Shown here: positions 12,030 to 56,725 of the stretch, piece after piece | How positions within the stretch are numbered: position 1 is the stretch's first letter | Layout: each line of letters opens with the position of its first letter | Assembly (NCBI GenBank): GCA_040437565.1 | Contig: JBDOQK010000044.1 | Coordinates: 1-64,000, forward strand | DNA: 64,000 bases | From: Albugo candida | Lineage: Eukaryota | Reading direction: 5' to 3' | The notes under the pieces: model-generated | The model's input: only the letters and a program-made list of their open reading frames with translations | What the model was told of the DNA's origin: nothing | The model's database searches: none | Translations under genes and position numbers: made by a program

Positions 12030-13440
12030 TACAACGATAAAATGCTAGATACATCGGATCTAGCTGAAGAAGAGTTATTGAGGCGACTTTACAATGAAGT
12101 GATTTAGATACTACAGCGTATCTACTCGACGATTCGTCTCATCACCTGGATTCAGCCAAAAACAAGTGGCCAACCGTTTTATGTGAGAGTAAAATGAAAG
12201 CACAAGAACATATCTCCCATCCATTCCACGTCGTCAACTCTCCAGAATCGTCTGAAAACCTACCGAACCAACCAGGAGTCATCCGATGTTGACACATTGG
12301 TCATCACGAGAAAGATCGTACGCAATGGTTTCAGAACGAGTTGGACAATTTATGGCTACACGTTCTCGTTTCTGTTTCTTAAAGAATATCCAGCCAGACA
12401 TTATGCTGTGCACGCATCCTTCGTGTGGGGTAGTAAAATCCGATCAACATCTCTTTCTCGAGTACAATCCCACAGCACAACTATGGAGGGAGCTTCTCCC
12501 TATTTTGGGGTCAGTTCTTTCCATCCCGACCAGGTTGGATGCATATTGCATGTAAAATTGTGCCAACACTGAGGTCGGATTCAGCAGAATATCAGCAACT
12601 CCGACATTTCCAGCACTTTCTGTAATCTACACCACGTTTCGTACGCACGTTCGATAATTTCGACGACAGTGCTACGATGAAGACGAGCGCATTCACTATG
12701 CAACGGTATTGAATCACCTCGCAAGACAAGGATCATTTGGTTGATTTGTAGAAGTCGACGATCATTGCTGCGGGTCCGACATCGGCAAGTTGGAATGCAA
12801 GTGCATCTTGGATCCTAGTCCTAGTTGGTGGCTAGGTTTAGCCTAGTATGGTGCACACCGCTTTCCATAACACGGTATTTTTGGACATTTACAGCTTTAA
12901 CTCGCATCAGATCTTTGGCACTTCGATTCCACTGATTGGATGATTTCTATAATTTACACGCTGGACACAGTCTCGTATTGTGATGTTTTTAAAGCTACCG
13001 CAATACAAGACTATTAACGAGAAGTCATATTATCATCTCTCATAGGTAGTTCCACGAAATGTTTTTTATGTGTACTTGCTATTCAAGATAGCCTAGGCAT
13101 CTAGAATGTCAAGGATTTCATTACACTGTTTATCTGGTTCTTTAACTACCTTCCTTTTCCTATCATGAGCCCCTGACCGTGAGAATATCACTTAGGTCTG
13201 ACTTCAAACCTAGGGAGGCAGATATTTTCCAAGCTTTTAGCTTGGGTGGGCTCAAACCGCTGCCCACACTGCCGGGGATCGAACCAACGACGTCCAGAAG
13301 GGGATCCGCTTGCACAACCGACTAAGCTGGGTCGGACGCCTAGATCAGTCGGACTTCTCTGGTTGTTACCCACCCGAGTACTACTCGAGCCTGCCTAGGA
13401 ATCTAGAGAAGTCAATTAGTATGATTCTAGTAATATAGAC
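12030..13440 (+). mobile_element. LINE 3' fragment (zinc-finger region of ORF2 plus 3' UTR), interrupted by a SINE
   Basis: CTHPSCGVVKSDQHLFLE...TAQLWRELL is a Cys/His motif typical of the LINE ORF2 C-terminus. The DNA is clearly homologous to 26468-27212, sharing GGATCCTAGTCCTAGTTGG, GCTGGACACAGTCTCGTATT and ATTCTAGTAATATAGAC. Confidence 0.85.
13106..13392 (-). mobile_element. SINE of 287 bp with a 5S rRNA-like head and a tRNA-like unit, flanked by a 15-bp target-site duplication
   Basis: Flanks are GCCTAGGCATCTAGA (13091-13105) and GCCTAGGAATCTAGA (13393-13407). The paralogous LINE at about 27165-27180 has a single uninterrupted site. The minus strand shows the 5S-like GCTCGAGTAGTACTCGGGTGGGTAACAACCAGAGAAGTCCGA, an A-box-like CAGCTTAGTCGGT and a B box GGTTCGATCCC. 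Confidence 0.8.
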
Positions 13441-13699
13441 GCTGCGCCAATCTTTGACCATTCAGCTTTCTCAGTACCACGAGCAAATTGTTTTGACTAT
13501 TCTGTCTAGCGTACATGCAACAGTGGAAGAATGCCTATCACCTAGTCAGAGTGGATTTCGACTCGTGAGCAGTAAAACCGAGTTAGTATGGGCTTACCGA
13601 TGTATTATAGCTTTAGCGCATCGGTCATAGACGAGCATGTACATTCTTGGAAAGCTCAGAAAGTTGTTTGTTAATATCGAACTACATAATTGTTCATAA

Positions 13700-15720
13700 T
13701 ATCATCACCATCCTTAGCCAGAATGAAGTTTCAATGGCAAGGGACTTCCCTCGTCTTTGATTCCTAATCTTTTACAGCGTTCCCGAGTCCTCATGGTGCA
13801 CCACACAAAGTGCTCCCAGATCACATTTGCTCGTGGTTTTTTGCTTGAAATAGGGACTTTTGGATTTGTTGCAACACATCCATAATCAAAGCACGAGATT
13901 AACACTTTCTTTTTTGCCGAGAATGAAAGTTTTTCTCAGGGTTAGGGCAATGCCTTGGGTCTCTTAAACGTCTCTTAATTTTGCTCATGATAAAAGAGCG
14001 CTGTGAGTAGGGCTAATCGATTTGCAGAATTTGCCATCCAATAGCAATGAGTTTAGATCTCTTCATATTCATGACCAATTCCTACTAACAATTTTTTATA
14101 TCAATTTTTATGTCACGCAACATTCAAATCAAGAGTAGGGTAAATAAGTCGATCATTTATTGCTGGTGGCCTGGTAAAGAAGCATCTGTACTTGTCTGGA
14201 ATCAGGCATAGATAAATACAATGTGGCTTACCTAGAGCTTTAGCCTGGATTGCTTGTTTTCTCTTCCCGAGGATTGCCTGCAGAAGAAATTAAATTCATA
14301 TCCAGTAACCGGACCCCTGAACTTGACAAATACTGCGAGATGGATAGAAAGTGTAGTCGCTGAAGATGTAGATTTGCAAGATGCAACTAGCACGTGTAGT
14401 GTAAATCGATGCGAAACTATTCCATCAGGATGATGCTAGGAAGTGGCGGTGCACCATGTTTCCATGGTCGATGCACTCGCACGAAAACGGTAGCTTTTGC
14501 TAACAAATGAAAACTCTCTGACTTAGTTTGTTTCATGATGAAAATGCAACCATTTTCGAGATGGAAAGCATGAGTAGATATGCTCGCTGAAACTTCTGAA
14601 TCTGCGGCTCCGAATGACTGGTAGATAACCCTACTAGTCAGTTTATTAGTCTGGCACGCTTCACATACGATAAATTGGTTCGTGGCGTGCCATACTGACT
14701 TCAATGCGCTTTGACTATGCTACTTCTTATTTCAATTCTCAGATGGTACGATGCGTTGGGCCAAGAAGGTGGACGCTATTTGCCATAAGATGTCGAGAGG
14801 GGGTCCACTACACCATGAAGCCATTAGCGAGGCGATGTAGAACATCTTGTCGTGTTTAATTTTCTGCCGCAAATGACTCGAATGCGTCCGTGTCTTTCAT
14901 TAGATACTGTATGAAAATGACTCCGTACAGCTAGCATGATATATTGGAGTTTCAAATTGATTAGATCAATTCGCGACTACCTATTTTAGTGAGGTTTGCG
15001 ACATGCTTACCAAATCGCTTTTTTCTAAGGACTTGGTTAGCATGGATACAAACCTTTAGAATGCATTTAGTTTTAGAAGGAAGGAAGAAAACGACACTTT
15101 TTCTTGTATGACTTGGCAAAATCATCGCGTTGCTCAGAGTCCAGGCTGTCAATTAACGGTTGCAGCTCTGCATGACGTCATGGTGTTACTTTTTAATCGC
15201 GCTTTGTATCAATTGAGTGATGAGATATGCTATTAAATGTTTGCCATTGTACACAATATAACGTGTAGAGAAGGCTTCTATGAGCGCTTGTTCTATATTG
15301 TGACGGACATCATCCAACGAAGAACATATGAGTCAATAATTCTGGGGGAGGATATCTTCTTGCATGCGCCCATGCGCTGATTCTTTTTTCCTAAGGATGA
15401 GAGAGGATTCGGGTAGTTTATTGTAATGGGCAGCATACTTTCATCACTTTAAATTCCGACATGTCACGTCGAATATAATAGATTTTGTACTTATAAGTTT
15501 AGAAACATAGACAGCCAAATCGCCAAAGTGAAAGTTTTCTCTCACTGCAATTCGGATGCGACAGACCAATTTTGTAGGACAAGGTTGAGATGAACAAAGA
15601 AGCCCAGCAAATTCAATGCCTAAAGAGTCTATAAAATTCTTGGTGACCTGGGCCTTGATTGCACAACAGCTTAGTCTCATGGAAGTGATCCTGTACAGCG
15701 CAAGCAATACGATTGTTGGC
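13700..15720 (-). pseudogene. Heavily decayed CCG-like secreted protein pseudogene (tentative)
   Basis: It starts with a hydrophobic stretch ending in CCA (IVLLALYRITSMRLSCCA), like the FGCCA of the intact neighbour. It also has VCEACQTNKLTSRVIY...SASIST (14654-14665) and KKKVLIS, resembling modules 3 and 5 of that neighbour. There are many stops. Confidence 0.45.
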
Positions 15721-16605: not shown

Positions 16606-18399
16606 TCAATCTGATAGAATCTCTGTTCTCTCACGCTTCGGTTTCAGACTCAACGTGGTTGTCGCAAATTCTGCCTGTACTTGCCGAAGGTACTGATTAT
16701 ATGAAAATTGTGGACCGTCTGTCACCTTACCATAGCATTTGTGACAGCGTGGAAAAGATTCGGAAGGGACCATCCATACATATCGCTTTATCACAGATAT
16801 GAGTACAACTTTGCGCTTGCGCGTCAGACAGATGAAGCATTCTCTGAATGCCGCTTCTCTCCCTGCGTCATCTGGATCGTTTTTATCCCACTCAACCACC
16901 ATGACCTTTGCAGACTTGACTATATTCGGTTCACTTGTACCGCCGGCTGACGAGCCTGATCCATCGTCTTCCAAATTCTGATTCAAGTCGAAATTTGTCA
17001 TCAGATCACCTGATTCATAGCGGCACATGATGTCGGGCATAAGTTGAACATCTTCGCAGGATGAATGCAGAAAAAAACATTTCAACATGTCAACAGCCAC
17101 TGCGTCTCTCTTGAGTAAGAATAAATAGGTAAATCGCGAAAGCTTCCAATTTTCTGCGCCTTGAAAACATTGAAGACAGTTTGGTCCTTTAGCGGCCGAT
17201 GAGTGCTCTACTAGAAAACAGCTAGAACCAAAGTGCGATACGTGATTGTTGTTTTGTGCCGCATCTATGCGCTCTATCCAGGTGAACACATTATTTGGAA
17301 ATGCCGAAATCATTACATGAAAGGTTTCTGACATGCATCCGCCGTCAAAATTGATATCACCACACCTATTAGAGCATATTTTCAAATTTACGTTTCCGTT
17401 TGTAAATAAAGACAGGACAAAACTTGTGCTTATTTTTGAGCTCAACCTCGCTTTGACCTTGTTCAAAACAACCATTCCTTTATAGGCTTTAAGCAAGCAT
17501 CCCCAGCAGCTACCAAGGCCTGATCCAATTGCCTTTGTCGTCAACAGGCAGGTGGGTGTCAACTTCAAATATTCAAGCTTTTCAGCTAAAGCATTCCAAT
17601 CTCTTTGTTTATTTTTTGTATAAGCTGATTTTATAAAAATGTTATCGGATATGGTTCCCACTAAGTTTGGCAACTCACTCGCTCTCGTCGACACTTGGTA
17701 CTTGAACAAATTGCATAGGTTAGGTGAAAGCGTTGCGGTTGTGCCAGAGCAGATACTTGGTTTCACACACTCGTTTTTGAGTCCATCAGGATCCGAAGAA
17801 TGTATCACATAAAGAACACTCATCTTGCGGTGACGTATACCATATATTTCCATGCTCCCCGTATCGCTCTTTGTAAGTATACATGCTTCACATAAATAGG
17901 AAAACGAGATGTCGTGTCTATACACGCATAAGTGCTTGGCTTCTCTTTTCTTATTGACGTGAAGTGGAAAATTACTTTGATGTAGAGGTGGTAAACCACG
18001 CGTGATTGCCCAATATCGCTGCTCGTTGACGAAATACTTTCGGCTTGGTCTTATTGACGCGACTGTTGCAAATGCCCCGTCGATGCCTTCAGTAGCAAAA
18101 GTTTCCAAGTCATTATTAAATGCCGGGTCTAGACACAGCTTTGTACCGAAGCAGTTAATTAGCTTTGCTCGAAGATAATTTGGTAGTCCCACAACCCAGT
18201 ACTCTTTCTTGTCGTATTCTTCATTTCCGATTTCGTTTACCTCTTCTACGTGAATAGCTCCTGCGCGCTCCAACAAGCACTTTTGACATGCTTCGTATGC
18301 TTCCATTGGCACACTGATGATTAGTGAGTCCAATCTCTCAGCACAACACCCAAAATGCCAAAAGACTACGAGGATACTGCGGAACAAATTCGCTTTCAT
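16606..18399 (-). CDS. Secreted CCG (CxxCxxxxxG)-class effector candidate, 597 aa, intronless, with five cysteine modules
   Basis: First ATG is at 18399. The N-terminus MKANLFRSILVVFWHFGCCA looks like a signal peptide. CQKCLLERAG at residues 38-47 is an exact CxxCxxxxxG. Further CxxC motifs are CEAC, CWGC, CLQC and CFIC. Confidence 0.85.
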   Translation of the reverse strand: MKANLFRSILVVFWHFGCCAERLDSLIISVPMEAYEACQKCLLERAGAIHVEEVNEIGNEEYDKKEYWVVGLPNYLRAKLINCFGTKLCLDPAFNNDLETFATEGIDGAFATVASIRPSRKYFVNEQRYWAITRGLPPLHQSNFPLHVNKKREAKHLCVYRHDISFSYLCEACILTKSDTGSMEIYGIRHRKMSVLYVIHSSDPDGLKNECVKPSICSGTTATLSPNLCNLFKYQVSTRASELPNLVGTISDNIFIKSAYTKNKQRDWNALAEKLEYLKLTPTCLLTTKAIGSGLGSCWGCLLKAYKGMVVLNKVKARLSSKISTSFVLSLFTNGNVNLKICSNRCGDINFDGGCMSETFHVMISAFPNNVFTWIERIDAAQNNNHVSHFGSSCFLVEHSSAAKGPNCLQCFQGAENWKLSRFTYLFLLKRDAVAVDMLKCFFLHSSCEDVQLMPDIMCRYESGDLMTNFDLNQNLEDDGSGSSAGGTSEPNIVKSAKVMVVEWDKNDPDDAGREAAFRECFICLTRKRKVVLISVIKRYVWMVPSESFPRCHKCYGKVTDGPQFSYNQYLRQVQAEFATTTLSLKPKRERTEILSD

Positions 18400-19299
18400 C
18401 CTGGTATCGAGCAATAGAATGTGGAAGGTCTTGCCACCTTGTGTACTTTAATGGTCAATAGAGCTCGTACCACTTTATTTGGTTTCTTAGTAGCACATTG
18501 TCCTGCTCAGCCAATCATCGTGCATTAGCGCATAGGCTTGCAACTTTGAATGCATGTGCGTGAATTTCAACCGTTGATAGTGGAAACAACACAACGCTCT
18601 GCAAATACGAATTGCGTATCGCTTTTAATAAAACATTTCAAGGCATGAATATATAAACGGATCCTATGGTAGAAATACTGGGACTTGTTTGTGCTCAGGG
18701 TAGCGGGAACACGATTCTTATCTTCTGATACATATTTGCGGCGAAAACCCGTGGTTCAAGCAGACAACTGAGAGACCACAGGAAGTCCCTATTGTATCGA
18801 TAGTCGCGGCAACAGCGAGAAATATTTGAGATATTTGACAATAATATAGACGATAAGTGCTTCTTCATATCACCAACCGTTAACAAGAGTCATGGCAATC
18901 ATGGGGAACACGCAGCTTCGGAAACAAATTTTAATTATCGTGTTTAGAATATGATGCTAGCACATTTGCTGTTTGATACATTAGAACCATTCACATTGCA
19001 CTCACTAGCATCAAGATATCTTGCCATGACTATCTATGATGTCCCAAGTGAAGATAATGGGACATGAAGTTGAAGCGATTCATAAGCGCAAATAAAGTGA
19101 AGCCATAGAGTCCCTTTATATAAATTTACCGATACAGTCGCGCGTACTGAGCAGATACAATGGAGAAAGCTCACATTTCATTTTTGGAATTTACTCGACA
19201 TAAATGACAACAAGACGTATCTGATTTGGTATACTGCTTGGCCGTGATCGGATGCAGTGTCAAACTTCAACACTGCATCCAAGCTCATTAGAATTTCCA

Positions 19300-21200
19300 T
19301 TCTACGAGCTCATGAAGCATCTTTTCGGTCCGACAAGCTGCAATGATATGATATGCCAGTTCGATTTCTGATTGTCACCAACTCTTCTGCGATCTTATAC
19401 AATGTTCATTATCCAATTCGAAGTCAGAACAAGCCATTAGCAAACGTTTTTGAGGAATCGAAAGCATATGTCGAAAGATATAATCAGGTCAAAGTCAACG
19501 AAAAGCTCGCTGAAGCTATGCAGACGTTTTATTTTCACTGCGGTCAAGATGCTGTGCACCTACCGTCCGCATTTCGTGGAAACTTTCTCAACTATCATCA
19601 TATGCAATTAGTAGGGCATCGGGATGATCGTAATGGAAGGAATCTTTGGCGTGAAGACTCGATTTTGGTATCAATCATGCGATTGTATCTGGCCGAAGGT
19701 GAATATGTTTCTGCTCTTGAACTTATGAATGAGAATATCAGGCAAAAGAACCTTTAGTAGGAAGAGACGTATCGTGAAGAAAGTAATAAAATGCATCAAA
19801 TGGTACACTTTCGCCTATTTGGGTATCTTCTTGCTTCCAAGCTCGAAATGGGCATAATTTGCATGCATACGATCAGTGGCAAGAATTCAAGCGCACTTTG
19901 GATAGCAATGGACATGTTTAATGCAAAACACTATCGTGGATTTGTTAATTTGCTGTCTCACATTCCATAATATGGACCCAAACATGCTTAAGACAGACGA
20001 CTTTGTAACACAAATGCAAAGCTTACTTCAAGATCTGAAGTATGTAACTACAGAATCCACTGTATTTAATGCTAAAAGAGTCCATCAAGAAGCCATAAAA
20101 ATCAATTCGATGTCGGCATCGTAGGAGAGAAGAGCAGCTAATGCTCTTCTCATTGCCCTCATTGCANNNNNNNNNNNNNNNNNNNNNNNNNNNNNNNNNN
20201 NNNNNNNNNNNNNNNNNNNNNNNNNNNNNNNNNNNNNNNNNNNNNNNNNNNNNNNNNNNNNNNNNNGCAAAGCTTACTTCAAGATCTGAAGTATGTAACT
20301 ACAGAATCCACTGTATTTAATGCTAAAAGAGTGCATCAAGAAGCCATAAAAATCAATTCGATGTCGGCATCGTAGGAGAGAAGAGCAGCTAATGCTCTTC
20401 TCATTGCCCTCATTGCAAGTCTATAGTGCAGAAAGAGATCATTGTTAACAAATAGTGGGATCATCTCGTAAGCTTTATATAATTAAGAAAGACTTGCCAA
20501 TCCAAAAGAGAAGCAAAACGGAGCGTTGTAGGCCGTCTCGTTAACGAGGAGTAGAGCCCTTTTCTGAACTGAAAATTGGCGAAGAACGCAGTACTCCAAC
20601 CAGGAAAATTACATTACATTCTGGATGGGCCAAATCTGGCTTATCTAAACCAGAATTTTGCACGAATCAACTTTCGTCTAGATTATGTCGATCATGTTGC
20701 CAGACTACTGGCACGTCGAGGCCATCTGGTCACCTTCACGATGCCATCTACCTACCATGAATCAACTTCTTTTTTATTGATTCAAGTGTGCACGCAGTGG
20801 GAAAAGAATATGAGTAATTAAAAATCAACAAATCTCATTCACGAACACGAGAATGAGAATAACTGGCTTTACAGCTGCGAGACAGCGACTTTTCAGACGA
20901 TTATTATTGGATTTATGCCAGTCTGATTCTCGAAAACCTATCGTCAAACCACGATGATCATTTGCATGTAATTGTTCCGCATAATGTACACGTTGTCATC
21001 AATGATAGTGGCCGTGATCACACACTCCATTTTAAGGATAATGTCACCGTGGGAATGACTACCTGGGATGTTGCGGAAGGCTCGAATAAGATATCAAATT
21101 ACCTGATCGAGCGGTGGTGGAACAAAACTGTGGAAGTATCGAATTGGTGTATGAAGAATGTGATATAATAAGACACAAGCACATATCCCCCGTGCTATCA
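19300..21200 (+). pseudogene. Protein-only RNase P (PRORP)-like pseudogene: helical N-terminal part plus NYN domain
   Basis: NYN motifs are ILDGPNLAYLNQNF (ORF 20576-20821), SDDYYWIYASL (about 20893-20925) and VVINDSGRDH (ORF 20962-21168). It has in-frame stops (TAGTAG at 19755-19760) and several frameshifts. Confidence 0.7.
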
Positions 21201-26467: not shown

Positions 26468-27212
26468 GAATCCGATCAACATCTCTTTTTAGAGTGCGAT
26501 CACACGGCACAATTATGGAGGGAGTTACTCCCTTGTTGGGATCAGTTTTTCTCCTCTCGACCACGTTGGCCGCATATTGCATGTGCAATCGTACCAGCAC
26601 GACGGTTGGATTGGAACAGATATCAACAAATTATTTCGGATTTATGGCTTGCATTGCAAGCGGTAACGCTGCACTTCGTCTGGACCGATCGGAATCGTCG
26701 TTGTTCGGTCAACGATCAGTAGCTCCGACAATTTGAGCACTTTCCGTGATCTACACCACGTTTAGTGCGCACGTTCGGTACTATCGAAGACAGTGTTACA
26801 ACCAAGATGAACGCATTCGGCTTGCAAAGATGTTGGATCAACCCGTAACGCAAGGATCATTGCTGCGGGTACGGCACCGACAAGTCAAAATGCAAGTGCA
26901 ACTCGGATCCTAGTCCTAGTTGGCTGGCGCTGTTCAACCTAGTGTGGCGCACATCGATTTGCAAAACACAGTAGTTTTGGACAATTTGCAGCTTTACTGC
27001 TTACAACTTAACAATTATAGCATTTTTTACAAGCTGGACACAGTCTCGTATTAAGGTGGCTGAGGCTACTGCAGTTCAGGATATTTAACGAGGTAGACAT
27101 ATTATCATCTCTCATTGGTATTTTTACGCAACGTTTTTTTTATGTATATTTGTTATTCAAGATAGCCTATGCAATTAGAGAAGTCAGTTAGTCTAATTCT
27201 AGTAATATAGAC
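26468..27212 (+). mobile_element. LINE 3' end (zinc-finger region plus 3' UTR)
   Basis: Reads ESDQHLFLECDHTAQLWRELL...HFVWTDRNRR; homologous to 12430-13440. Confidence 0.85.
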
Positions 27213-28051: not shown

Positions 28052-28596
28052 TGTTGTAATTTTTGGTAATTTGCAGAGGGAGAATTCTTAGCAGGGGTGG
28101 TAAAAATGAGAAGTAGTATTAACCTGAATACCTAGACATGTACTTAGCTAGATAGTTCAACCGTACATAGGAGCTTCATCATCAACACTCTCCCTCGACT
28201 AATAAGTTCAAGTTTCTCGTGAACAAGTCAAGTATTGGAGTTACAAGTTTCTCGTGAACAAGTCAAGTATTGGAACTTATCAATCGAGGGGGAGTGTTGA
28301 TGATGAAGCTCCTATGTACGGTTGAACTATCTAGCTAAGTACATGTCTAGGTATTCAGGTTGATACTACTTTTCATTTTTACCACCCCTGCTAAGAATTC
28401 TCCCTCTGCAAATTACCAAAAATNNNNNNNNNNNNNNNNNNNNNNNNNNNNNNNNNNNNNNNNNNNNNNNNNNNNNNNNNNNNNNNNNNNNNNNNNNNNN
28501 NNNNNNNNNNNNNNNNNNNNNNNGGTTGATACTACTTTTCATTTTTACCACCCCTGCTAAGAATTCTCCCTCTGCAAATTACCAAAAATTACAACA
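28052..28596. mobile_element. Fold-back mini-element: two inverted 136-bp copia-like LTRs, each with a polypurine tract, flanked by the direct repeat ATTAT
   Basis: The left LTR is 28052-28187 (minus). The right LTR starts at 28295 (GAGGGGGAG|TGTTG) and ends in TTACAACA at 28596, across an overlap gap. ATTAT occurs at 28047-28051 and 28597-28601. The spacer holds two copies of CAAGTTTCTCGTGAACAAGTCAAGTATTGGA. Confidence 0.75.
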
Positions 28597-28967
28597 ATTA
28601 TATATTAGATCTTGTAGGAGCTGTTCTACCCACCTCAACGCCGATGCTCCAATCCTCTGCAAAACCTGTAAAAGGCAATACAAAACTAAGCATTAGAGGT
28701 ATGCTAGCATTCGATTCTAAATGTTTACGCAAAAAATTGACTGCGTCAACTAGACAATCGCATAAAGTTGCTGCACAGTCATTGGTCGATTATCGCTTGT
28801 ACCTAGTCCTTATCCCGTTTCGATAAAATTTAAAATACAAAAATCACTGTTTAAACTTTCCCGTTTATCTGATCTGCAGCTGCCAAAAGGTCTGTCCCAC
28901 TTGTGCTTGTGTGGTGTAGCTGAGTCGATGAAGTATGATGTCATTTTCGAATTTACCAGCTGCAAGA

Positions 28968-29858: not shown

Positions 29859-32095
29859 GCTTTAATTTTTCTTTTTTTTACATGGATCCTACCATAATCT
29901 ATTTTTCGTGAGCAGCCACTTTATAGTCGAGTACTAAGAATTTATTTTGTAAAGGCTGTGTAGCCAATTTACCAATCTATGTACCATCCATGAATGTATA
30001 CATTCAGTAGAGTAAGATAAAATATTTCCGTAAGGGTATAGATATTCCGACAACTTTTTTTCTAATTACAACATGCCTATTTGAATTATTACTCTCACAA
30101 CTTTTTCTATTTTGAAAAATACATAAATAATTTTACATTGCTAACTAATTACATGCATACAGACCCTAAATTGTTGCTCCAACAACTTCAATCTTGTATT
30201 GCTTGTGATTGGTTATTACATAGAAAGTTTCAGCTGTGATAGGCTAATACATATGACAATTTTCATTTGACACATATTTCTATTTCTATACGCTACCTAC
30301 AAGATTGCATTATGCTTCCCCCACCAGTACACAGAACCTAGAACACATTTGAAGAGCTCTTCAAAGATGCTATAACAGCTTGTTGCCTTAAATAATTTGT
30401 CAGGACTCATATATATATCGGCTTTTTTATGCCAACCACACAGTTCGAAAAAGACTACGTTGATATCGAAACCAATCGAAGGACGAGCAAAATAAAGCTT
30501 CAATAATCCACACAAATCGCAACTCTTATATCGATATTTGTATATCGCGTGAACCGTTCCCCACAGATACGACCTAATGAGGGAAAGTTGTTATTCTCTG
30601 GTGTTCTTTTGATTTCCAGGAAAAGCAAAGAAAGCTATTCATAATCTTTTCATTAGATCTGCTTTTCAATCCATAGACAAGGTTAGATCAGAATGATTTG
30701 GTTTGAGCATCAGTCGTGGTCTCGCCATGAAGTCGACTATGTGTCACACACGCTTATTGTATTCAGTGAAAGCTACCATGTGATAGGCTCTTTGTGATGA
30801 CGAGCCCTTGATCGAGTTTGATTATGTAATGTTTCAGGCTCAAGTAGAGATGTATCGGAGTCGGCATCAGTCCTTCATAAAAAAGTTGGCCACGCAAATA
30901 GAACACTTTTCAGCCTTGTATTTGGCTCCAAAAATCAGTATCTAGTTCCAGGTGAATGCGTCCATGTTATTATCTACTTTCTTCTTTTAGTGCGGGTAAG
31001 CCATACACATGTGACTACTTGCTGAAAGGACGAGACGTAGAATTTAGCTCTCTTATGCGCACTCATTGATCCTTTAGAAGTGAAAAGAAAATGCTCCCTT
31101 ATTTGTCTAGTGAGTATCGAGTATCCAATATACTCCCTCTTGCTTGCATTCGGTCAATGCCTTTGACTTGTCACGTTGGAATTGCGATCATAATCTGTAA
31201 AACTCCGTCACATTTTCGTCAACCCCGCCACGTAGTCATCGCATCAGCACACTTGTCATCGGCGAACTTTCAATGCGATGATACAAATTTTCCTGCTGTC
31301 GTCGCACAACCTATAGACGGCTTTTCTTGAGGTACAATCAGCTAAATTTTGGCCTGTTCTCTGCTCTAGCTGTAGTCGCTAGAACTGGGCCGAAAAGTTC
31401 TGCTCTCCGGCCTGGCCGACAAAATCCGTAAGAGTGTGTCCTGATGTTGGCTAGCATGGCTTTGTGGTGGGAAATTTGGAGCAAGATAATCGTCTGCTCT
31501 GCAGTCACCAACAAAACGAGTGTTTTTAACCCATACATCGCTTCACCCATTCACTAATCAAGTGTGTTTTGATTACCCTCCCAAAATGCCAACTAATCTT
31601 CTTATGGGGATACAAGCGCGCTGTTTGTAAATCGCGCGACCAGTTTTGCTTGCTTAGAACATTGAAATTCACCTGATTCCTAAGCATACACATTATCATG
31701 TAGATTCCTAGCATTATTGTGATCAGCCTATGTGTTGTGTATCCAATAACAATGATAATCGAAAGGGGTGATTGAGTTGTACATTCTAGAGTGTGGACGC
31801 CAAAGAAAAACTCAGCACTTTGAATATACAGTGCATAGACGATGTATATGTCGAATTTATCAGGTTGGTGCAAAGCAACACACGAGCAATGTGAACAATT
31901 GTACACAGCGCAATTACTGAATATATAAAAGTGGAGCATTCTTTGAAGCTGTGGGATACATTATTTACGGCGCATAGAAATTCAAACATCGCCCCGATTG
32001 CGACCACGTGGGTTAGACAGTATCGGGGAGGGGTCTTGATTGAATTTGCTGGTACAAAATCTAGGAACCCTAATTTTAGATCTGTACTTGATTTG

Positions 32096-35000
32096 ATGAG
32101 AAGCAAAAAAGTTCTTGACGATATTAATCTTGTTGTGCAAATAAATCGGCATATCGTCGAGAATCCAAACAATCGTGAAGCGGTAGAAGACCTCCTCGTT
32201 CGTCCATCATCTTTTCAAGTACTAGCTAATTTAGATGAATTAGACACTCCAGTTCACCCGCGACACTTATTCCAACATCAAAGCACTAACGGGAATAGAA
32301 AGGGTCCATGTGAGCTTCCATTTCATCTTCAAGGAGATGCTACGTTTGCGATTGGCATAGCTGTACAGAAGCGCAGAGTTTTGCAGCATTCGAGTGACAT
32401 ACGCACACATATCTATTCGCTTTGGGATGTTGCTTGCAACGAAACCGTTCTCTGTGAAGCTGGTTCGATCGAATCGAAAAATGGGCAGCAGCTTTCACAA
32501 TCACAGTACATGAAATTTATGTTACTTGTCTACAAAGCCCTTCGTTTTGACTTTCAGATCAAAAGCGCTACTGAAGATATTTTGTGTGATTGGGAGATAG
32601 ATAGTAGCTCTAGCACTTTCCTCAATGTGGATCAATTCCATGCATCCATCTTCGAACTCGTCGATCTTTGGACTTGTGATATCGAGGAAGCAACGTATAC
32701 CGCATTTTTGAAGCTTTTGATCAATCGAATCACTGTCCGTGTAGTGGTATACATCAATGGTCAAAAACTCGTCTACTCCGTGACGGACAATTTCAGCAAT
32801 GAAGAGTTGATCGTCAAGGCTATTCCTCTTCAATTGATCGATTGTTTTGCGCCTGTGGTAACACTGTCAACTCGAAAAGGTGTCAATACAGTTGGTGAAC
32901 TTGCAGCTACTGATGCATCTGAGCTTGAAATTGAGCGTCAGGCTTATGTGGCTCAAATGAATTTTTCCGCGGAAAAGTTAGGAAAGGACATTTCACATTT
33001 GCTGGATATGTTTAGATGTCTCTCAAAACAGTTTCAGCCCAACGCTTACAAGGCAAAGGAGCTTTCGAGAAACTCCGAATTTGAAGCGGACAATCCAGAT
33101 TGCAATCTCAAGGAGCTTGAAAATCAAAACTCATTTTTATCGGGGGTGGAATCGCATACGTCTGCTGTAGTGAAGGGTAATAAGAAGAGTACTCCACAAA
33201 AGTCAAGTCCGATCTATGATCTTACGAGATCAGATCTGAGACTTGTCGACTCGATTCGCGCGTCATTTATCATTGAGAACAATATTTCTCTAGAGTATAA
33301 ATGCGCACCAAAAGACATCAACATTGAGCTTCGAAAGTTTGGTGTGAATCCCGATACGTTGGCACCACAAGAAGCAAGTGCACAGTATCACAATTTTTAC
33401 GAGATGCTTGTGGTGAAAAATGGGCAAGACATCAAGGCTTTAGCGAAGACTGTACTCGACCAAATTCGATTTGAACTTGCGTCGCACGGGATTTACTTGG
33501 AGGAATCACAGCTTGAGGGTGCGTACGACGAGTTCTATAGCTCGATTGTCAAGGGAAATGGTCAAAAAATGGTTCAAGATGCCAAGGATTGGATTGATAA
33601 GACCAAGCGGGACAAAACTGTTTCGAGCTATATCAAGTCTGAGTACACAACTTTGAGAAATATTGACTCTGTTGATTCGGGAGGATTCGAAAGTGAGGAT
33701 ATAGAAAAGTTTATCATGCAATCGGTACAGCCTGAACTCACTCTTCTGACTGAGGCGTCGCAAGTTGTTCGAATAAATGATACTGAGTCTTCTGTGACGG
33801 CACAGGAAGAGAATGAGGACCATGTTGAGATGTTATTCGAATCAGGTAGCGCCATTGTCGAGGCACATCACGAGGAATCATCACAGTCAGAGTCAAATAC
33901 GTTTGAAGGCATCATAGCCATAGAAGAAAGCGCATCTATCGAATTCGAAATCTTACCGGATGCTGATAAGACCATAGAAGCGAGTAATCGCTTTGAAATC
34001 GACACAGGAACGAACATATACTCTACTCTGGACAGATTCCATGCGAGCGATAGAACTCCTAGCTTGAATGTAGAAAACAGCGTTCACACCATGCAGAGAT
34101 TCGTTGCGTTTTCAACAGAGGCAGATGAAAATGAGTACAAACAAGCAGGATCTACTATTCCTATCACGTCTTTTAGAACAATGAAAAATTTAGCATCCCC
34201 ACTTCCGATTGTCGACACCAGCGATCGGAAAGATGACAAAGTGGAACTTCTCCTTCCCATAATTCAACCAACACGACCTCCACCTGAGACCAAAAATTCT
34301 GTTTTGTTAGATGATCAATCCGATAAAACCGACAACAAAATGACCAGCCAATGTATCTCCATGCCAATATTAATTTTGAAATCAGATCAGAATCTACATC
34401 CAAGTACATACGATAACGCCCTACCTATTGTATCGAATAGTACAGAGAAGGAGCCCATAACCATCCCGATCTTTCCAGTCAGCGCCCAAAGCTACCTTCC
34501 TGATGTTGATTCACCTTGCCCCACAGAGATGCCTCCCAAGATTCCTCAGATAGTGGTAGGTGGCATTGAAGGTGCCAGCAATGTCGCAACTATATCACGA
34601 TACATTCGCTTACTGGAACTAGGCACAGGTAAGTCTCTCCTAGTGGACTCACTATGGTAAGGCTTCATTATTATTGTACAGTTTTTGATGCAAAATATGA
34701 AGAAGAAATGTTTCAATTTCTGGCAACAGCTGAAGGCCAAGAAACGGACTTGGTACGGCAGTCGTCGGCTATAATTTGATATTCTGACCCGATGACCTGT
34801 TTAGGTCTTTGTTGATATTGCGAATAGGACCGAAAATGCGATAGAAATTACACTTCGCGTTCAGTCAATTATTGGAAATAAATTGATTCTCCTCGGAGGA
34901 GACGATTCTGCAAAAGCAAACGCAATTGCTCAACAATGTATACAGCATGGTGCAATTTATTTTGCTAGATTTCCATTTGACTTTTCTATACTTCGTGCTG

Positions 35001-36525: not shown

Positions 36526-39500
36526 ATGGCTCCCAACAAGTCTCAAGACCAGGACGAATTGCGAGACACACTTCCGACGGCTCAGTCATATATCGATTGG
36601 GACCCGAAAGAGCGCCATAGATATGCTGCCCCACGTATCGAACGCGCCTACGGAAAGCCATTACCTCAATTACGAATCTGTGTGCGGGACCTCAACATTT
36701 CGGCTCAAGTGCAATTTGTCGACAGCAAAGACAACAACAGAGGTTTACCAACTTTATGGAATGAAATCAAGCAGTCATTCAGTGGACTAAGCGCTAGCCG
36801 GAAAGTTGCACAGAAAGAAATCTTGACAGATGTGAATTTGGTGCTGCAACCAGGAACACTAACTCTGGTTCTGGGCCAACCTTGCTCTGGAAAATCGACG
36901 CTGCTAAAATATCTAAGTGGGCGATTTCAGAAAACTAAAAATGTGAACGTGCAAGGTCAGGTTACTTATAATGGTGTCCCACAGTCAGAATTCTCAAAAA
37001 CACTGTCGCAGTTTGTTGCATATGTGACCCAGCGCGATTATCATTTTCCAACACTGACAGTCAAAGAGACTTTTCAGTTTGCTCATGATTTTTGCACCCC
37101 GGTCAGTAAGGAGGGAATTTATCAACGTCTTTCTAGTGGAACAGTTGAAGAAAATGAAAGTGCACGCGCTATTCTTGACCACGAAATGGATCTTCACCCC
37201 GATCTCGTCATTGCCAGCTTGGGCTTGAAGCATTGTGAAGACACGGTCGTCGGGGACGAAATGCTCCGTGGGGTCTCGGGTGGTGAGCGTAAGCGTGTAA
37301 CGACAGGCGAGATGCAGTTTGGATTCAAAGAAGCTGCAATGATGGATGAAATAAGCACAGGCTTGGATAGTGCGGCAACTTTCGATATTGTGCAAACACT
37401 TCAAAGTATGGCACAAACGTACAAAAAGACCATCGTTATCGCCTTACTGCAACCCCCTCCAGACGTCTTTGAGCTCTTCGATAATGTTATTCTGCTAAAT
37501 GAAGGAAAGGTGTTGTATCAGGGTCCTCGTACCGAAGTGATTCAATATTTTGATAATCTTGGCTTTCAGTGTCCGGAATATCACGACCACGCAGACTTTT
37601 TGCTGGATCTTGGAAGCAATGAGCAGTCTAATTATCATGTGGATCGTGGGGTGGTTCCACCTAGAACACCGACGCAATTTGCTAATGCGTTCCAGCAATC
37701 ATCGTACTATAAAGATACCCGGGCAGAACTTGACCAGAACCTTACTACGAGTACTTCCCCACATGAACTCCAACACATGAAATCAGTTCCTGCATTTCAA
37801 CGATCTGCTGCTCACAATTTGGCTGCCCTGATTCGACGACAATTTATGTTGATTTCCAGAGACACAAATGCCATAGTTGGTAGAGCTATTATGACAACTG
37901 TGATTGGTCTCATATATGGATCCACTTACTATGACATTGCACTCCCCAGCATCCAACTGGTTACTGGTACTTTGTTCAACGCATTAATCTTCTTAATCCT
38001 GAACCAGTCTACAGACGTTCCAAACAACATGTTTGCCCGGACAATGTTTTACAAGCAACGTGACGCGAATTTCTATCAGACCGGGTCGTTTGTAGTGTCA
38101 ACGTTCATCGGACATTACCCCATGGCTTTACTGGATACGATTGTATTCGGAACGCTTGTGTACTGGATGGGAGGCTTGGTAGCAAATGCAGGGGTCTTCA
38201 TAGTGTACCTCATACACTTGTTGCTGAACACTCTATGTATTGCGTCGTTCTTTTATTTTCTTAGTGTGAGCTCAGCTGATCTCAATGTCGCTCAACCTTT
38301 GACAATGGTATCGATCGCAATGCACGGTCTATTTGCTGGTTTCGTCATATTACAAGACCAAATTCCGTCCTGGCTCGTTTGGGTTTATTGGATCAACCCA
38401 TTGGCCTTCACTCTTCGTGGAATGCTAGTCAACCAATATCGACATTCAAGTCTGGATGTTTGTGTGTATCAAGGAATCGATTACTGTACTCGATACGGCA
38501 AGACTATGGGCGTATACTCGTTGGATTTGTTTGGCGTTCCTTCCGCCAAAATCTGGGGATATCTTTCCATTCCGTATCTAATTGGTCTTTACTTCTTATT
38601 CATGATTCTGTCCATGTTTATCCTGGAATATCGTCGACCGGTAGAGACTCACAGCTTTATCAAAACCGACTCGGAACAGCTTACAGATGTCGCTGCCGAC
38701 TCAGAGAACGTCTATTACTGTGCGTCTACTCCAAGTGCCTCTCAACGTAATCATGTCGTCATCAACGCGTCAGCTGAACGCCGAGCAATCACACCAATTA
38801 CGTTGTCATTCCACGATCTTCGATATACTATCGTGAAACCAAGCGGCGANNNNNNNNNNNNNNNNNNNNNNNNNNNNNNNNNNNNNNNNNNNNNNNNNNN
38901 NNNNNNNNNNNNNNNNNNNNNNNNNNNNNNNNNNNNNNNNNNNNNNNNNTCTGGGGATATCTTTCCATTCCGTATCTAATTGGTCTTTACTTCTTATTCA
39001 TGATTCTGTCCATGTTTATCCTGGAATATCGTCGACCGGTAGAGACTCACAGCTTTATCAAAACCGACTCGGAACAGCTTACAGATGTCGCTGCCGACTC
39101 AGAGAACGTCTATTACTGTGCGTCTACTCCAAGTGCCTCTCAACGTAATCATGTCGTCATCAACGCGTCAGCTGAACGCCGAGCAATCACACCAATTACG
39201 TTGTCATTCCACGATCTTCGATATACTATCGTGAAACCAAGCGGCGAAAAAGTTGATTTATTGAAAGGGGTATCTGGATATGCGGTCCCTGGGACAATGA
39301 CAGCTTTGATGGGGTCTTCTGGTGCTGGGAAGACAACTCTTATGGATGTTATTGCTGGAAGGAAAAAAGGGGGTCAAATACAAGGGATGATCACATTAAA
39401 TGGCCATACTGCGTCGGATATTGCGGTCAGACGACTGGCTGGCTACTGTGAGCAAATGGATTTTCACTCAGAAGCTTCAACTATACGAGAATCGCTCATG

Positions 39501-41003: not shown

Positions 41004-41727
41004 CTCGCGTGTCTCTTTTTCATTCGCATCGAAAGGTGCATTTCATTCGTTAAAAAATTGAATAAACGTGAATTTTCTTCTCAATTGCATGCCTGTTTCA
41101 GTCAACTTTTGCTTTGATTCGTTGTATGCGCCGAATTGGTGCGATTCTCTACCTTTGCAGCGGGAAACTGATCTTTTTTACGATATTCGCCTGAGCAGTT
41201 CGATTATAGGTTCAGCACATGACGGGATAACAGGAGCCACATTGAGACAAAACATGGAAGGACAACGCTCATCCATTTCGAGTTTACATTGTGCTATGCG
41301 CATGCACTTTTCGATCGGACAGCATTGTATCCTCGCTATGCTGCTAAGGATTGAGAAGTCCGCAGTTGAGCTGATTAGAGCATGTACTCGCTGTAGTGTA
41401 AAGTCGTAGAAAGTTTTCGATGTAAGGCATAAGGATCCAAGCAATTAAGAAGTGCTTAAAGAAAGTTGACAAACACCTTTTGCAATGGTTTCGATGCTTC
41501 CTGCGAACAGCCGTGCATGCCTCACTTCAGTGTATTTATATGCAACCCTTTTGCTTCAAGGCGTAAGAATTTTAGTCATTCCATCCCTGAAGCGTGGTGG
41601 AACACAAAAAATCTTGTCCACAACAGCTTCCTATTTTGTATCGTATCTGCTTGACGCTGATACTAAATTATGCCCAAAGTTTGTTTGTAAGCGTCTAGAT
41701 AACTCAGTCTTTACCTTGGGATCTAGT

Positions 41728-44700
41728 ATGGAGCAGGAGGAGGGCTACAATTCATTTGAACAAGAGCACCATGAGTTACGAGGTGAGAGTGCGAATCTCA
41801 CACTCCACCGACTAGCAAATTCTCTAGCCAGTACAGAACTACATCGAAGTGATAGTGGGCGTAGTCTTCGTCTCCGACCTTCAAATGCTAGTGCCGATCA
41901 GACCATATCGAGTCACTGTTTGACTCCAAGGGCTCCTCGAGGACTCAGACCGGGCGGAAGGAGGCCGCATGGGGCGACGGTAATGGTGCCGCACCAAACG
42001 TGCTTGGCGTTCAAGCTAGACAACAATAGTAGTATCCACACAAAAAATGATCATATACTTTCTGATACTGAGGAACCCGAGTCTATCGCCTCGATGGAAC
42101 CATCCACCCGCTCAGCATCTGAAAATCAAAAAAGTCAAGAAGGTACACTCGAGAAAAGGAGAAGCAGTTTTTCTATTTCGACGCATATTCTTGCACAATT
42201 ACAAGAAGATAAAATGAGAAAAGTTGTGAAGACTACTGAGCCTCTCAGGTACACTAATACAATTCCCAAGTTTGAGCACGATGGTGCTTCCTCGTGCCCA
42301 ACAAAATTTAAGCTTGAGGTTCCTGAAAAGCCTGCGTTGTTAAGTCTGAGCTCCGATACGGAAAAAAGCACACCCAAGTCTCTATACAATTTCTCACTGT
42401 GGAGCAATGCTGTTAAACGTCCAATCTTGCCTGAAGCTGTTGGAGCAAGAAACGGTGCCGACTCAGATATGACAGAAGAATGCATGACACAAAGACCTCG
42501 ACCTCGCTGTTACTCGAGCGAAGCAATCTCGAGTGTCTGCACCGGTGAAGTTCTTTTGCCTATCGAAGAAAAAGACTTGAAAGACGCGCGTGACATGATT
42601 GCTCGTTTGAAAACCGATGACAGTAAATCCACAACTTCTCTAAAGACAATAGATCAAAAGTCGCAAAGTTCTTCCACTTCAAATCGTGAAATGAGCCTAA
42701 CTCGCTCGATGTCTCCAAAAATCAGCAAATCGTCAATCTTTAAAAGAGCCTCATCCTCTCTCCCAACATCGGCACCGAATCTTCCTCCACGCTCGACCTC
42801 TTTGGATTCCACAATCGGAAAAACAGCGGAAGCTTTCTCCAATTCACAGTCCTCCAAAGCATTCGATCAAGTGTATGGCAATCAGAAAGCGTATTATCAC
42901 TCTCAAAGCCATTCAGTAGGAACTGGTTCTATTACACAATGGAAGAGAGGAACGCTTATTGGAGAAGGAACGTTTGGAAAGGTTCGCCTCAATTCATTAA
43001 TCACACAGCTTTTTATTTCCATCCATTAGGTCTACATGGGACTCAATATTGCTACCGGAGAACTCTTTGCAATGAAAGAAGTCGAAGTTCGTGCCAGCTC
43101 ACTGAACGAGCATTCCGATCCAATAAAACAACTCTCTNNNNNNNNNNNNNNNNNNNNNNNNNNNNNNNNNNNNNNNNNNNNNNNNNNNNNNNNNNNNNNN
43201 NNNNNNNNNNNNNNNNNNNNNNNNNNNNNNNNNNNNNTGACTCCAAGGGCTCCTCGAGGACTCAGACCGGGCGGAAGGAGGCCGCATGGGGCGACGGTAA
43301 TGGTGCCGCACCAAACGTGCTTGGCGTTCAAGCTAGACAACAATAGTAGTATCCACACAAAAAATGATCATATACTTTCTGATACTGAGGAACCCGAGTC
43401 TATCGCCTCGATGGAACCATCCACCCGCTCAGCATCTGAAAATCAAAAAAGTCAAGAAGGTACACTCGAGAAAAGGAGAAGCAGTTTTTCTATTTCGACG
43501 CATATTCTTGCACAATTACAAGAAGATAAAATGAGAAAAGTTGTGAAGACTACTGAGCCTCTCAGGTACACTAATACAATTCCCAAGTTTGAGCACGATG
43601 GTGCTTCCTCGTGCCCAACAAAATTTAAGCTTGAGGTTCCTGAAAAGCCTGCGTTGTTAAGTCTGAGCTCCGATACGGAAAAAAGCACACCCAAGTCTCT
43701 ATACAATTTCTCACTGTGGAGCAATGCTGTTAAACGTCCAATCTTGCCTGAAGCTGTTGGAGCAAGAAACGGTGCCGACTCAGATATGACAGAAGAATGC
43801 ATGACACAAAGACCTCGACCTCGCTGTTACTCGAGCGAAGCAATCTCGAGTGTCTGCACCGGTGAAGTTCTTTTGCCTATCGAAGAAAAAGACTTGAAAG
43901 ACGCGCGTGACATGATTGCTCGTTTGAAAACCGATGACAGTAAATCCACAACTTCTCTAAAGACAATAGATCAAAAGTCGCAAAGTTCTTCCACTTCAAA
44001 TCGTGAAATGAGCCTAACTCGCTCGATGTCTCCAAAAATCAGCAAATCGTCAATCTTTAAAAGAGCCTCATCCTCTCTCCCAACATCGGCACCGAATCTT
44101 CCTCCACGCTCGACCTCTTTGGATTCCACAATCGGAAAAACAGCGGAAGCTTTCTCCAATTCACAGTCCTCCAAAGCATTCGATCAAGTGTATGGCAATC
44201 AGAAAGCGTATTATCACTCTCAAAGCCATTCAGTAGGAACTGGTTCTATTACACAATGGAAGAGAGGAACGCTTATTGGAGAAGGAACGTTTGGAAAGGT
44301 TCGCCTCAATTCATTAATCACACAGCTTTTTATTTCCATCCATTAGGTCTACATGGGACTCAATATTGCTACCGGAGAACTCTTTGCAATGAAAGAAGTC
44401 GAAGTTCGTGCCAGCTCACTGAACGAGCATTCCGATCCAATAAAACAACTCTCTAAGCTGGGCGAAGAGATCTCGTTAATGGAAAATCTCAATCACAGTC
44501 ACATTGTCCGGTCTGTATCACTTTTATTCGAGTCTCCCGAGCCTTATAATGTTAATAGGTACAAGGGAAGCCATCGAACCGATAATATTTTTTATATATT
44601 CATGGAATATGTTCCAGGAGGAACAATTGCAAGGTTAGAGCCTACTTTGCACTATATCGATGCCTTCTCATTTTTGTGTAGTATGCTGAAACAATTCGAC

Positions 44701-45439: not shown

Positions 45440-46903
45440 ATGTCGTTCCTTTCTTACCCCACGGGTGTTCGCATGACAGCACAAAACGTTGAGAAGCTAC
45501 AGGCAAGACGACGTCGTCAAGAACAGGATGCATTATCGCTTCGCAAGTTTACCAATTCAAACCAAGTTCAGGTGACAGAGCATCAGGCAGAGGCGAGTGT
45601 AGCGTATAAACGACGCTCGAACCAAGCGGCACAATTCACTGCCGAGCGAATATTGGAGCAAACTGACGAGCAAATAGCCGAGGAAAAAGCTCGACGCTTG
45701 CGAGAGACACAACAGAATGAGCTGGTGGCTCAGACCTTGGAAGCTGACAAACGAGCAAAGGAGCAAAAAGAACGAGAAATACAAAGAATTTGTGAGTCGA
45801 GTGAAGATTTGTACGAATTGCAGGCTGTCCTAAAGACAGCTTACATGAACAAGGAACGAGCGACACAACAGCTCGAGAAGGAGACACTGCATACCATTGA
45901 AAAGCAGCGACAAGTAGCGATGGAACAACAAATGGAATATGATCGACAAAAAGCTCTTATCGAGAGGGAAAATGAAGGGCTTTTGAGAAAGGTACAAGCA
46001 CAAAAAGCCAGCCAGGGACTTCAGCAGCAAATGCTCGAACGACGGGAGCTTGAAAAAGAGAGCCAACAAGTAGCCGAATTGGAGCGTCAACGAGTTGAAG
46101 AGCTCATGCGTCAAATTGAGCTCGAGGACCTCGCGGAAATCGATAAGCGCAATCATCAACGTATACAAACGCGCCAGATAATCAAGCAAACAAAGGAAGA
46201 ACGAGCTGAGGTCCTCCGATCTCAGGCCGAGAAGGATCGACAGCAGGAAGAGCGGATTCTCGAGTATCAACAGCAAGTCGCTGCACGGGAAGCTGCTGCA
46301 AAGGCGTCCACGGAACAACGTAAAGCTATTCAGGACGCAACTTTCAAGGCGATTGAGACCGAAATTAAGGCAAAAATGCGTCAAGACGAAGAAATGGAAC
46401 AGCTTCGTGACGAATTGTGGGAGGAGGAGATGTACCAGAAGAAAAAGGAACAAGACGAAGCCAAACAAGAAGCCAAACGCCAAGCCAAAGAGGTGATGAT
46501 GACCAGTAATGCCGAGCAATTGCGATATAAACAGGAGATTCAGGCTCGACAAAAAGCTGAAGAAGAAGCGTATAACGAAAGCCTTAAACAGAAGTTCAAA
46601 TCGGAAGCCAGAAGAGATATGGAATTGGCCATTTTCCGTAGAAAACAAAAGGAGGAGTTCCAGAGAGAGATTGCCGAACAAAAAGCTTACAAACAGCGGC
46701 TGGTTCTGCAACAGGTTGAGGTTGAACGTCGTGAGCGTGAGGCAGAAGAAAAAGAAGAAGCGTATCGACGACAAGTGATTGAGGAAGCCAAGCGTAGACT
46801 TTTGGAGCAACACGCAGAAGCCTTGGAGGGGTATTTACCCAAACATCTTTTACATCCGACTTCCGGCACACTTGAGGCTTCTCGCGCTCGGTCTCAGCGA
46901 TAG
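45440..46903 (+). CDS. MNS1: Meiosis-specific nuclear structural protein 1 (ciliary coiled-coil, TPH domain)
   Basis: E/Q/R/K-rich coiled coil with the MNS1-like blocks LKTAYMNKERATQ and LLEQHAEALEGYLPK; the start may be 45473. Confidence 0.8.
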   Translation: MSFLSYPTGVRMTAQNVEKLQARRRRQEQDALSLRKFTNSNQVQVTEHQAEASVAYKRRSNQAAQFTAERILEQTDEQIAEEKARRLRETQQNELVAQTLEADKRAKEQKEREIQRICESSEDLYELQAVLKTAYMNKERATQQLEKETLHTIEKQRQVAMEQQMEYDRQKALIERENEGLLRKVQAQKASQGLQQQMLERRELEKESQQVAELERQRVEELMRQIELEDLAEIDKRNHQRIQTRQIIKQTKEERAEVLRSQAEKDRQQEERILEYQQQVAAREAAAKASTEQRKAIQDATFKAIETEIKAKMRQDEEMEQLRDELWEEEMYQKKKEQDEAKQEAKRQAKEVMMTSNAEQLRYKQEIQARQKAEEEAYNESLKQKFKSEARRDMELAIFRRKQKEEFQREIAEQKAYKQRLVLQQVEVERREREAEEKEEAYRRQVIEEAKRRLLEQHAEALEGYLPKHLLHPTSGTLEASRARSQR

Positions 46904-55881: not shown

Positions 55882-56725
55882 CAATGGTAACCAAACTGTA
55901 CCTTTAATGCAATTTGGTCGCAAATGTGAGGCTCATTGATACACAGAAAGAATACTGAAAGGCTGGCAGCGCTTGATCGTAATTCTTGCGTTCGGCTGCT
56001 CAAATAGTGGTTTCTCGGCACCCAACAAAGTACTAGATGATTGTCTGAGACTTTGCTGCCCGATGCAAACATCCATACGGCTTCTCTTTACGCTTCATAA
56101 AAATTCGAGCACGAGATTGGTAACAGACATGATAGATAATTCTGTCAATCCATCAACCCAATCAAAGCCACTTAGAAGCCGCTGTATCATGGATCGATCG
56201 CCATTTCCATTGTCAAAGTTTTGACTTCATTCATTTGCAGTTGATCTTCGAGCATGTCGTGCTATCACAGCAAAAGCAACGTCACCAATCCGTCGCGCTG
56301 TGAACGATCAATCTGTATGATATCATGGGCAACTAAGCTGTATAAAGCGCGTGTAATCTCTTCTGAGCTGCATACTCGATTCTTCGCATCCATAGCTTTT
56401 GTTGCTTTCTCCTTCAATTCCGCCATGTTGATTTGCCCAGAATGGAGATACAGGGAGTTGAGTATACACGATTTGATAGAGGATACTTCCTCCATATCCC
56501 AGTTTGATTCAACGATCGACCGCAAACGACTTATAAGATTGGCCAGAATCNNNNNNNNNNNNNNNNNNNNNNNNNNNNNNNNNNNNNNNNNNNNNNNNNN
56601 NNNNNNNNNNNNNNNNNNNNNNNNNNNNNNNNNNNNNNNNNNNNNNNNNNTGGATCGATCGCCATTTCCATTGTCAAAGTTTTGACTTCATTCATTTGCA
56701 GTTGATCTTCGAGCATGTCGTGCTA

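Follow-up and report, generated by a model that had tools for sequence, protein, structure and literature searches.

Retrocopies that join two unrelated RNAs within a single insertion are known from mammals and from the fungus Magnaporthe, where LINE-made chimeras carry target-site duplications (TSDs; excerpted text of PMC2104539). In the excerpts that we cite, these chimeras (U6/L1 and 5S/L1 in mammals; WEIRD/Mg-SINE/MGL in Magnaporthe) consist of two unrelated RNA copies, joined directly and in the same orientation within one direct repeat of 14-15 bp, and one partner is an abundant small RNA, with 5S fragments and SINEs both among the documented partners. For the primate 5S/L1 chimeras, the cited part of a preprint reports truncated 5S fragments and TSDs of 7-15 bp in six of eight cases (bioRxiv 10.1101/2025.02.02.635956). 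The Albugo candida insert described here shares this organization. It differs, as far as those excerpts go, in that its 3′ partner is a seemingly complete SINE rather than a 5′-truncated LINE, and in that its 5S piece is a sense-oriented internal fragment from the 3′ half, whereas those of primates come mostly from the 5′ part and are often antisense.

Among oomycetes, the closest known counterparts of the insert's larger part are the tRNA-related SINEs of Phytophthora infestans (infSINE) and the SINE-like clusters of Peronospora effusa. Likened by description, and within the excerpted accounts, all are short non-coding repeats with an internal Pol III promoter made of A and B boxes. The infSINEm group is given there as 32 copies and, on the same descriptive basis, the Albugo SINE family looks far more abundant; the P. 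effusa clusters are confined to single chromosomal sites, whereas the Albugo SINE is dispersed. A 2024 paper (PMC11540230) states, in the part cited, that SINEs are uncharacterized in oomycete assemblies apart from Whisson 2005. For A. candida itself, 274 "SINEs" (0.28%) are tabulated in PMC13585763, the excerpt of which gives no description of them, and the repeat library of that study may already contain the Albugo SINE family. Our literature search brought up no account of any Albugo SINE, or of a 5S-containing SINE or chimeric retrocopy from an oomycete.

Composite heads made of 5S plus tRNA sequence are known from animal SINEs, as in the AmnSINE1 group. In SINE3 and AmnSINE1, a 5S head containing A box, intermediate element and C box is common to the members of a family; the arrangement here is known from a single copy without the A-box half, and ordinary members of its SINE family have no such head. 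The resemblance to SINE3 of zebrafish and Aspergillus, judged from excerpts, lies in the placement of 5S-derived sequence on the 5′ side of a short retroposed element. An earlier reading of this DNA, made from the sequence only, had treated 5S-derived SINEs as an animal matter, a view that is incomplete, since the cited part of PMC5063351 describes the 5S-related SINE3 in Aspergillus.

The locus lies in a 64-kb window of A. candida (the window being the whole stretch of 64,000 nucleotides that was analysed). The window has a G+C content of about 42%, and its long unbroken open reading frames are eukaryotic, among them PDR-type ABC transporters, Prp19 and SHMT. The features discussed below are as follows.

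12437-13440, plus strand: 3′ end of a degraded LINE copy, the host, interrupted by the insert and delimited by alignment to its sister copy
13091-13105: left TSD copy, plus-strand letters GCCTAGGCATCTAGA, equivalent to the single copy at 27165-27179 in the sister LINE
13106-13392, minus strand: whole insert, 287 bp, reading 5′ to 3′ on the minus strand as 5S fragment, short junction and tRNA-related SINE
13107-~13342, minus strand: member of a dispersed, high-copy tRNA-related SINE family, recognized from contigs of four runs
13275-13285, minus strand: B box GGTTCGATCCC, an exact match to GGTTCGANNCC
13318-13329, minus strand: A-box-like motif CAGCTTAGTCGG, with one mismatch to TRGCNNAGTNGG
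13343-13349, minus strand: junction letters, between the limit of the 5S contigs at 13350 and the end of the longest listed SINE family piece at 13342
13350-13392, minus strand: 5S rRNA-derived fragment, about positions 65-106 of the 120-position RF00001 model
13393-13407: right TSD copy, plus-strand letters GCCTAGGAATCTAGA
26468-27212, plus strand: sister LINE copy, from the ORF2 C-terminus to its stop at 26720-26722, and the 3′ UTR with the empty site at 27165-27179

The sequence-only reading had proposed a 287-bp insert bounded by a 15-bp duplication with one mismatch, and the two TSD copies, identical at 14 of 15 positions with a single mismatch, do enclose exactly 13106-13392. It had also pointed to a sister LINE copy at about 27165 that lacks the insert. 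A BLAST search of 12501-14200 against the 64-kb window gave four non-self matches, all within 26536-27212; the alignments of the left (12760-13111) and right (13393-13440) flanks to this sister copy share 27165-27186, an overlap characteristic of a TSD over an empty site. A three-way alignment confirms that the sister is uninterrupted at 27165-27179. Contigs of four public runs (X2, X3, X4 and X20) were aligned to 12950-13549 at 80% likeness. LINE sequence abuts 13393 directly in 7, 5 and 3 contigs of X2, X4 and X20, respectively, and these represent further uninterrupted paralogues. The filled locus is covered as well: in each of the four runs, the pieces across the left junction (12950-13136) have 0-1 differences, and pieces on the right side (13262-13549), which span the joint between 5S and SINE, show 0-1 differences and are listed for X2, X3 and X4. 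Because the filled locus is seen in independent runs, the insert is not an assembly artefact. Together these observations support the insert as a retroposed element with a TSD. Neither BLAST nor a self-comparison of the window revealed a second copy of the insert within the 64 kb, its tail has no other match there, and its sense strand contains no T4 run.

One X3 contig joins 13105 to 13416 with four letters between them, its shorter side being 21 letters long and its depth 34 as against 58. We do not claim a present/absent polymorphism from it, as it may derive from a paralogous LINE copy rather than from an empty allele.

The host and sister LINE copies align from 12437-13105 to 26469-27179 with 70-79% identity and from 13393-13440 to 27165-27212 with 88% identity. 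An open reading frame in the sister (26468-26719, plus strand) encodes an 84-residue ORF2 tail with 71% identity to a 422-residue Albugo laibachii protein (E = 3.7e-30), and the nearest named relatives of this frame are A. laibachii and A. candida proteins. An exhaustive search with the 422-residue protein found 193 relatives at E ≤0.001; all eight of the longer relatives that were scanned contain RVT_1, and two of the eight also contain Exo_endo_phos, in both cases upstream of the matched region. By this two-step chain, from the A. laibachii protein to the domains of its long relatives, the host is classed as an endonuclease/reverse-transcriptase LINE. Direct Pfam searches gave no match for the 17 window ORFs around both LINE copies, for the 84-residue tail or for the short Albugo relatives, and a PDB sequence search with the host LINE gave none either; Atlas yielded a weak lead (zf-RVT at rank 12, score 0.84, 14% of members). 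With the ORF2 stop at 26720-26722, the insertion site about 445 nt downstream of it and the insert on the opposite strand, the element sits antisense in the LINE 3′ UTR, in agreement with the sequence-only reading.

The outer end of the host copy has a peculiarity of its own. It matches the LINE family only as far as 13440, while 11 and 13 contigs (X2 and X4) extend further with about 12 shared letters, and the sister copy likewise extends from 27213 onward. The absence of these last family letters from the host copy is unusual for a LINE insertion.

Read along the minus strand, the insert begins with 5S sequence. The alignment to RF00001 is good over 13350-13392, yet the whole hit scores 18.8 bits (E = 1.4) against a gathering threshold of 38; at gathering thresholds the whole window has no 5S hit, and an insert-only Rfam search at E ≤10 returned no matches. 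The segment 13350-13390 matches very deep contigs with no listed difference, and its summed word depth is 160-1200 times that of the flank. A 5S contig overhang before 13350 reads "...AAAAAGTAGACAGCAC" on the plus strand, corresponding on the minus strand to a 5S 3′ end with a T-run, and a 5S contig of X20 has a 30-nt overhang behind 13390; we take both to be canonical 5S, the former as the 3′ end with its T-run and the latter as the helix III/loop C region. Since 13350-13390 matches without a listed difference and the overhangs supply the rest of a 5S gene, the head is truly 5S-derived: as judged from these alignments, it derives from present-day 5S rRNA as an internal fragment of about model positions 65-106. 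No locus was returned by a metagenome scan for a 26-mer from the 5S part.

The remainder of the insert belongs, as proposed earlier, to a tRNA-promoter-type SINE, and the contigs of the four runs establish that the family is real, dispersed and of high copy number. Matches end exactly at 13107 in 39, 43, 44 and 17 contigs (X2, X3, X4 and X20, respectively), and the overhangs beyond this point agree with one another only at 0.40-0.46, so the contigs must come from different loci. Hundreds of pieces match 13107-~13308; those that are listed reach 13330-13342 and differ from our copy by 4-18%. The summed word depth of the SINE is 150-1200 times that of the single-copy flank, a value that, by the tool's own warning, is not a copy number. 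Relative to the family, the copy at 13107-13342 has lost about 7 nt from the interval that separates the A box from the B box, where the family overhang behind 13308 has extra letters and a closer A box, and its tRNA-like head carries a further 10 majority differences. The other copies share 4-6 letters (...TACTT, plus strand) just outside 13107; these are missing here, which makes the 3′ end of our copy atypical.

The exact B box at 13275-13285 stands as the sequence-only reading gave it, and the A-box-like motif is retained with one mismatch, its lower coordinate moved from the proposed 13317 so that it occupies 13318-13329. The pattern GGTTCGANNCC has no other exact match in the 64 kb, against 0.29 expected, but at least one B box occurred in 26 of 100 shuffles, so that the B-box count alone is not significant across the whole window; the same holds for the A-box count, reached in 12 of 100 shuffles. 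The A-box-like motif starts 44 nt before the B box, a distance that we take to be the spacing in tRNA genes, just as we take TRGCNNAGTNGG and GGTTCGANNCC to be the consensus patterns. ARAGORN found no tRNA gene in the window, and one in the insert only when its threshold was lowered to 80%; Rfam gave no tRNA match at E ≤10, the insert-only search included. Covariance models, which the sequence-only reading had put forward as a check, thus support neither the 5S nor the tRNA call. The SINE has no poly(A) tail, and the comparison of its tail with LINE 3′ ends, suggested at the same time, brought no convincing likeness to the 3′ end of the host LINE family as seen in contig overhangs. We describe it, on its motifs and family alignments, as a SINE of tRNA-promoter type, about 240 nt long, which has no poly(A) and no covariance or cloverleaf support for a tRNA. 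A metagenome scan with a 22-mer of the SINE core found 0 loci. In X2, X4 and X20, one contig apiece contains a tandem pair of incomplete SINE copies separated by 113 letters (13107-13244; a "goes back 138" joint), so SINE-next-to-SINE loci exist elsewhere in the genome.

Between the two parts lie the junction letters 13343-13349, which could be a 5′ leader belonging to the SINE or else untemplated filler. Compared with the genuine 5S 3′ end, the 10-11 nt past 13350 show 4-5 differences over 11 positions, as opposed to 1 over 43 upstream (Fisher p 0.0008-0.005), and this abrupt loss of likeness indicates that the 5S sequence does not run to its end before the tRNA-like unit; we rejected a decayed 5S 3′ end as an explanation of these 10 nt on the same figures. 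Of the 50-nt string that had been quoted as 5S (13392-13341), the 5S origin is thus borne out, with its start at 13390 instead of 13392, and the last 9-10 nt lack support as 5S, the likeness ending at 13350. The picture of a 5S sequence complete to its 3′ end and passing directly into a tRNA unit gives way to one of an internal piece.

Nor does 5S plus tRNA emerge as the architecture of the SINE family, as had been suggested. Three listed family copies (X2 record 7, reaching 13342; X4 record 28, reaching 13337; X4 record 29, reaching 13330) continue past the tRNA-like head into at least 179 letters unlike the 5S part, and all contigs listed as bridging the junction belong to this locus. None from any other locus was found among the 32 of 1579 pieces that are listed, which are presence data and weak as evidence of absence, and none of the 14 joints listed connects the SINE core with the 5S part, an absence that likewise weighs little. 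Cover over 13310-13349 is low, at 0.5-8 times flank depth in the first bin, with the X3 bins, at about 8 times flank depth, not fully accounted for. Low cover and the missing core-5S joint fit a unique junction, although we do not count contig absences as evidence.

The 7-mer GTCCGAC occurs twice on the minus strand around this joint, 17 nt apart: the copy at 13348-13354 straddles the point where the 5S part ends, and the second, at 13331-13337, lies in the first letters of the SINE. The repeat may be a trace of the joining of the two RNAs, or chance.

We favour, with a probability of roughly one half, the reading that the insert is a single chimeric retrocopy, formed probably when reverse transcriptase switched templates from SINE RNA to 5S rRNA. 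One TSD around two co-oriented RNA copies, with an empty sister site, points to a single event of target-primed reverse transcription. In such an event, a LINE endonuclease would have nicked the 3′ UTR of the older LINE copy, and reverse transcriptase, working on an RNA of the abundant tRNA-related Albugo SINE, would have reached the 5′ end of that RNA or its vicinity; it would then have switched to 5S rRNA, copied about 43 nt (model positions ~65-106) and stopped, and integration would have left the 15-bp TSD. Unlike the TSD, the empty site, the 5S origin, the family membership and the existence of family members with no 5S head, all of which are shown, the template switch, the order of copying and the restriction of the junction to this locus are things we infer. 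The switch may have been aided by a partial likeness between the first 10 nt of the SINE and the last 11 nt of 5S rRNA: annealing of the SINE start to the 5S 3′ end would account for a 5S identity that ends 11 nt short of that end. This likeness is a post hoc observation and amounts to 7 matches in 10-11 nt, with gaps.

Several features sit less easily with a template switch. Such chimeras have five published hallmarks, two of which are lacking: the 5′ partner is a 43-nt internal 5S fragment instead of full-length, and the 3′ partner is not 5′-truncated, as the SINE part reaches 13342, as far as the longest listed family pieces. Direct joining in the same orientation within short direct repeats is present, with at most 7 unassigned letters at the joint. 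The atypical 3′ end at 13107 and the unexplained part of the X3 depth over 13310-13349 also weigh against the switch. The junction moreover falls inside 5S, at about position 106, and not at its 3′ end, unless the annealing is accepted. A junction inside 5S needs no special pleading if the insert is instead a one-off retrocopy of a read-through RNA, whereby one of the many 5S genes had received a SINE around position 106, Pol III transcribed from the intact 5S promoter into the SINE, and the product was retroposed by a LINE through the SINE tail and truncated at its 5′ end. All known 5S promoter elements lie upstream of such a junction, and 5S genes and SINE copies are both so deep in the contigs that a SINE within a 5S gene seems plausible. 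No such source locus is seen in the contig data, and the likeness of the junction letters to the 5S 3′ end would be left as a coincidence. The present data fit read-through RNA and a template switch alike; we nevertheless regard the read-through origin as the unlikely one of the pair.

A 5′-truncated member of a small, young composite SINE subfamily would look much the same, and its structure is as expected for such a copy. Full-length members would have a 5S head, with a 5S-type Pol III promoter, in front of the tRNA-related SINE; our copy has no A-box half, perhaps as a result of truncation, and only about model positions 65-106 remain, an interval (alignment ~65-106) that presumably covers the intermediate element and C box region as these are placed within 5S genes. 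The deletion of about 7 nt and the 10 majority differences in the tRNA-like head could mark a distinct subfamily, and the excess in the X3 junction bins would suit one too. Yet the three listed family copies have no 5S head, the window holds no second copy, and the last 11 nt of 5S are missing from the 5S part; that the listed contigs offer neither a second locus bridging the junction nor a core-5S joint among 14 adds little to this. We consider the subfamily doubtful. Two separate insertions (a 5S retropseudogene followed by a SINE), a DNA-level rearrangement or a mis-assembly are very improbable. Exact duplications flanking 100-N gaps show that the scaffold is flawed elsewhere, which lends mis-assembly some colour, but contigs of three independent runs bridge 13262-13549 with 0-1 differences. 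As to two insertions, there is one TSD pair only, with neither a second duplication around the SINE nor a 5S remainder after it.

Taken alone, the insert is a single dead insertion, and an effect on the organism is unlikely. It brings to light a tRNA-type SINE, dispersed and very abundant in Albugo, for which we found no description in the literature. A template-switch origin would also make it direct evidence that the LINE machinery of an oomycete is able to link two RNAs within a single insertion, the process thought to give rise to composite SINEs. Should the same junction recur in further copies, these would represent a newborn 5S-headed SINE outside animals and fungi. If the insert is, as seems unlikely, a 5′-truncated copy of a young, low-copy SINE with a 5S head placed before an existing tRNA-type SINE, then no oomycete, and no stramenopile of any kind, would have yielded a 5S-headed or dual-promoter SINE before, and this one would have been caught near its birth.

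Other parts of the window deserve brief mention. Three open frames of 519-921 residues (16606-18447, minus strand; 31895-34660, plus strand; 41470-43029, plus strand) match no Pfam family at E ≤0.001. Several 100-N gaps are flanked on both sides by the same sequence. The copies are 100% identical, over up to 1217 bp, at 41921-43137 and 43238-44454, at 46876-47595 and 47696-48415, at 38552-38849 and 38950-39247, at 52189-52518 and 52619-52948, and at 56190-56550 and 56651-57011; at a further 100-N gap, 20016-20166 and 20267-20417 are 99.3% identical. These duplications look like an artefact of gap closing or scaffolding that has doubled parts of genes (the ABC transporter, the Prp19 region and others). 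Beside another N gap, a 365-bp stretch (28059-28423) is its own reverse complement at 88% identity, with inverted copies across the gap at 28524-28601, and may be either a palindromic repeat or an assembly fold-back.
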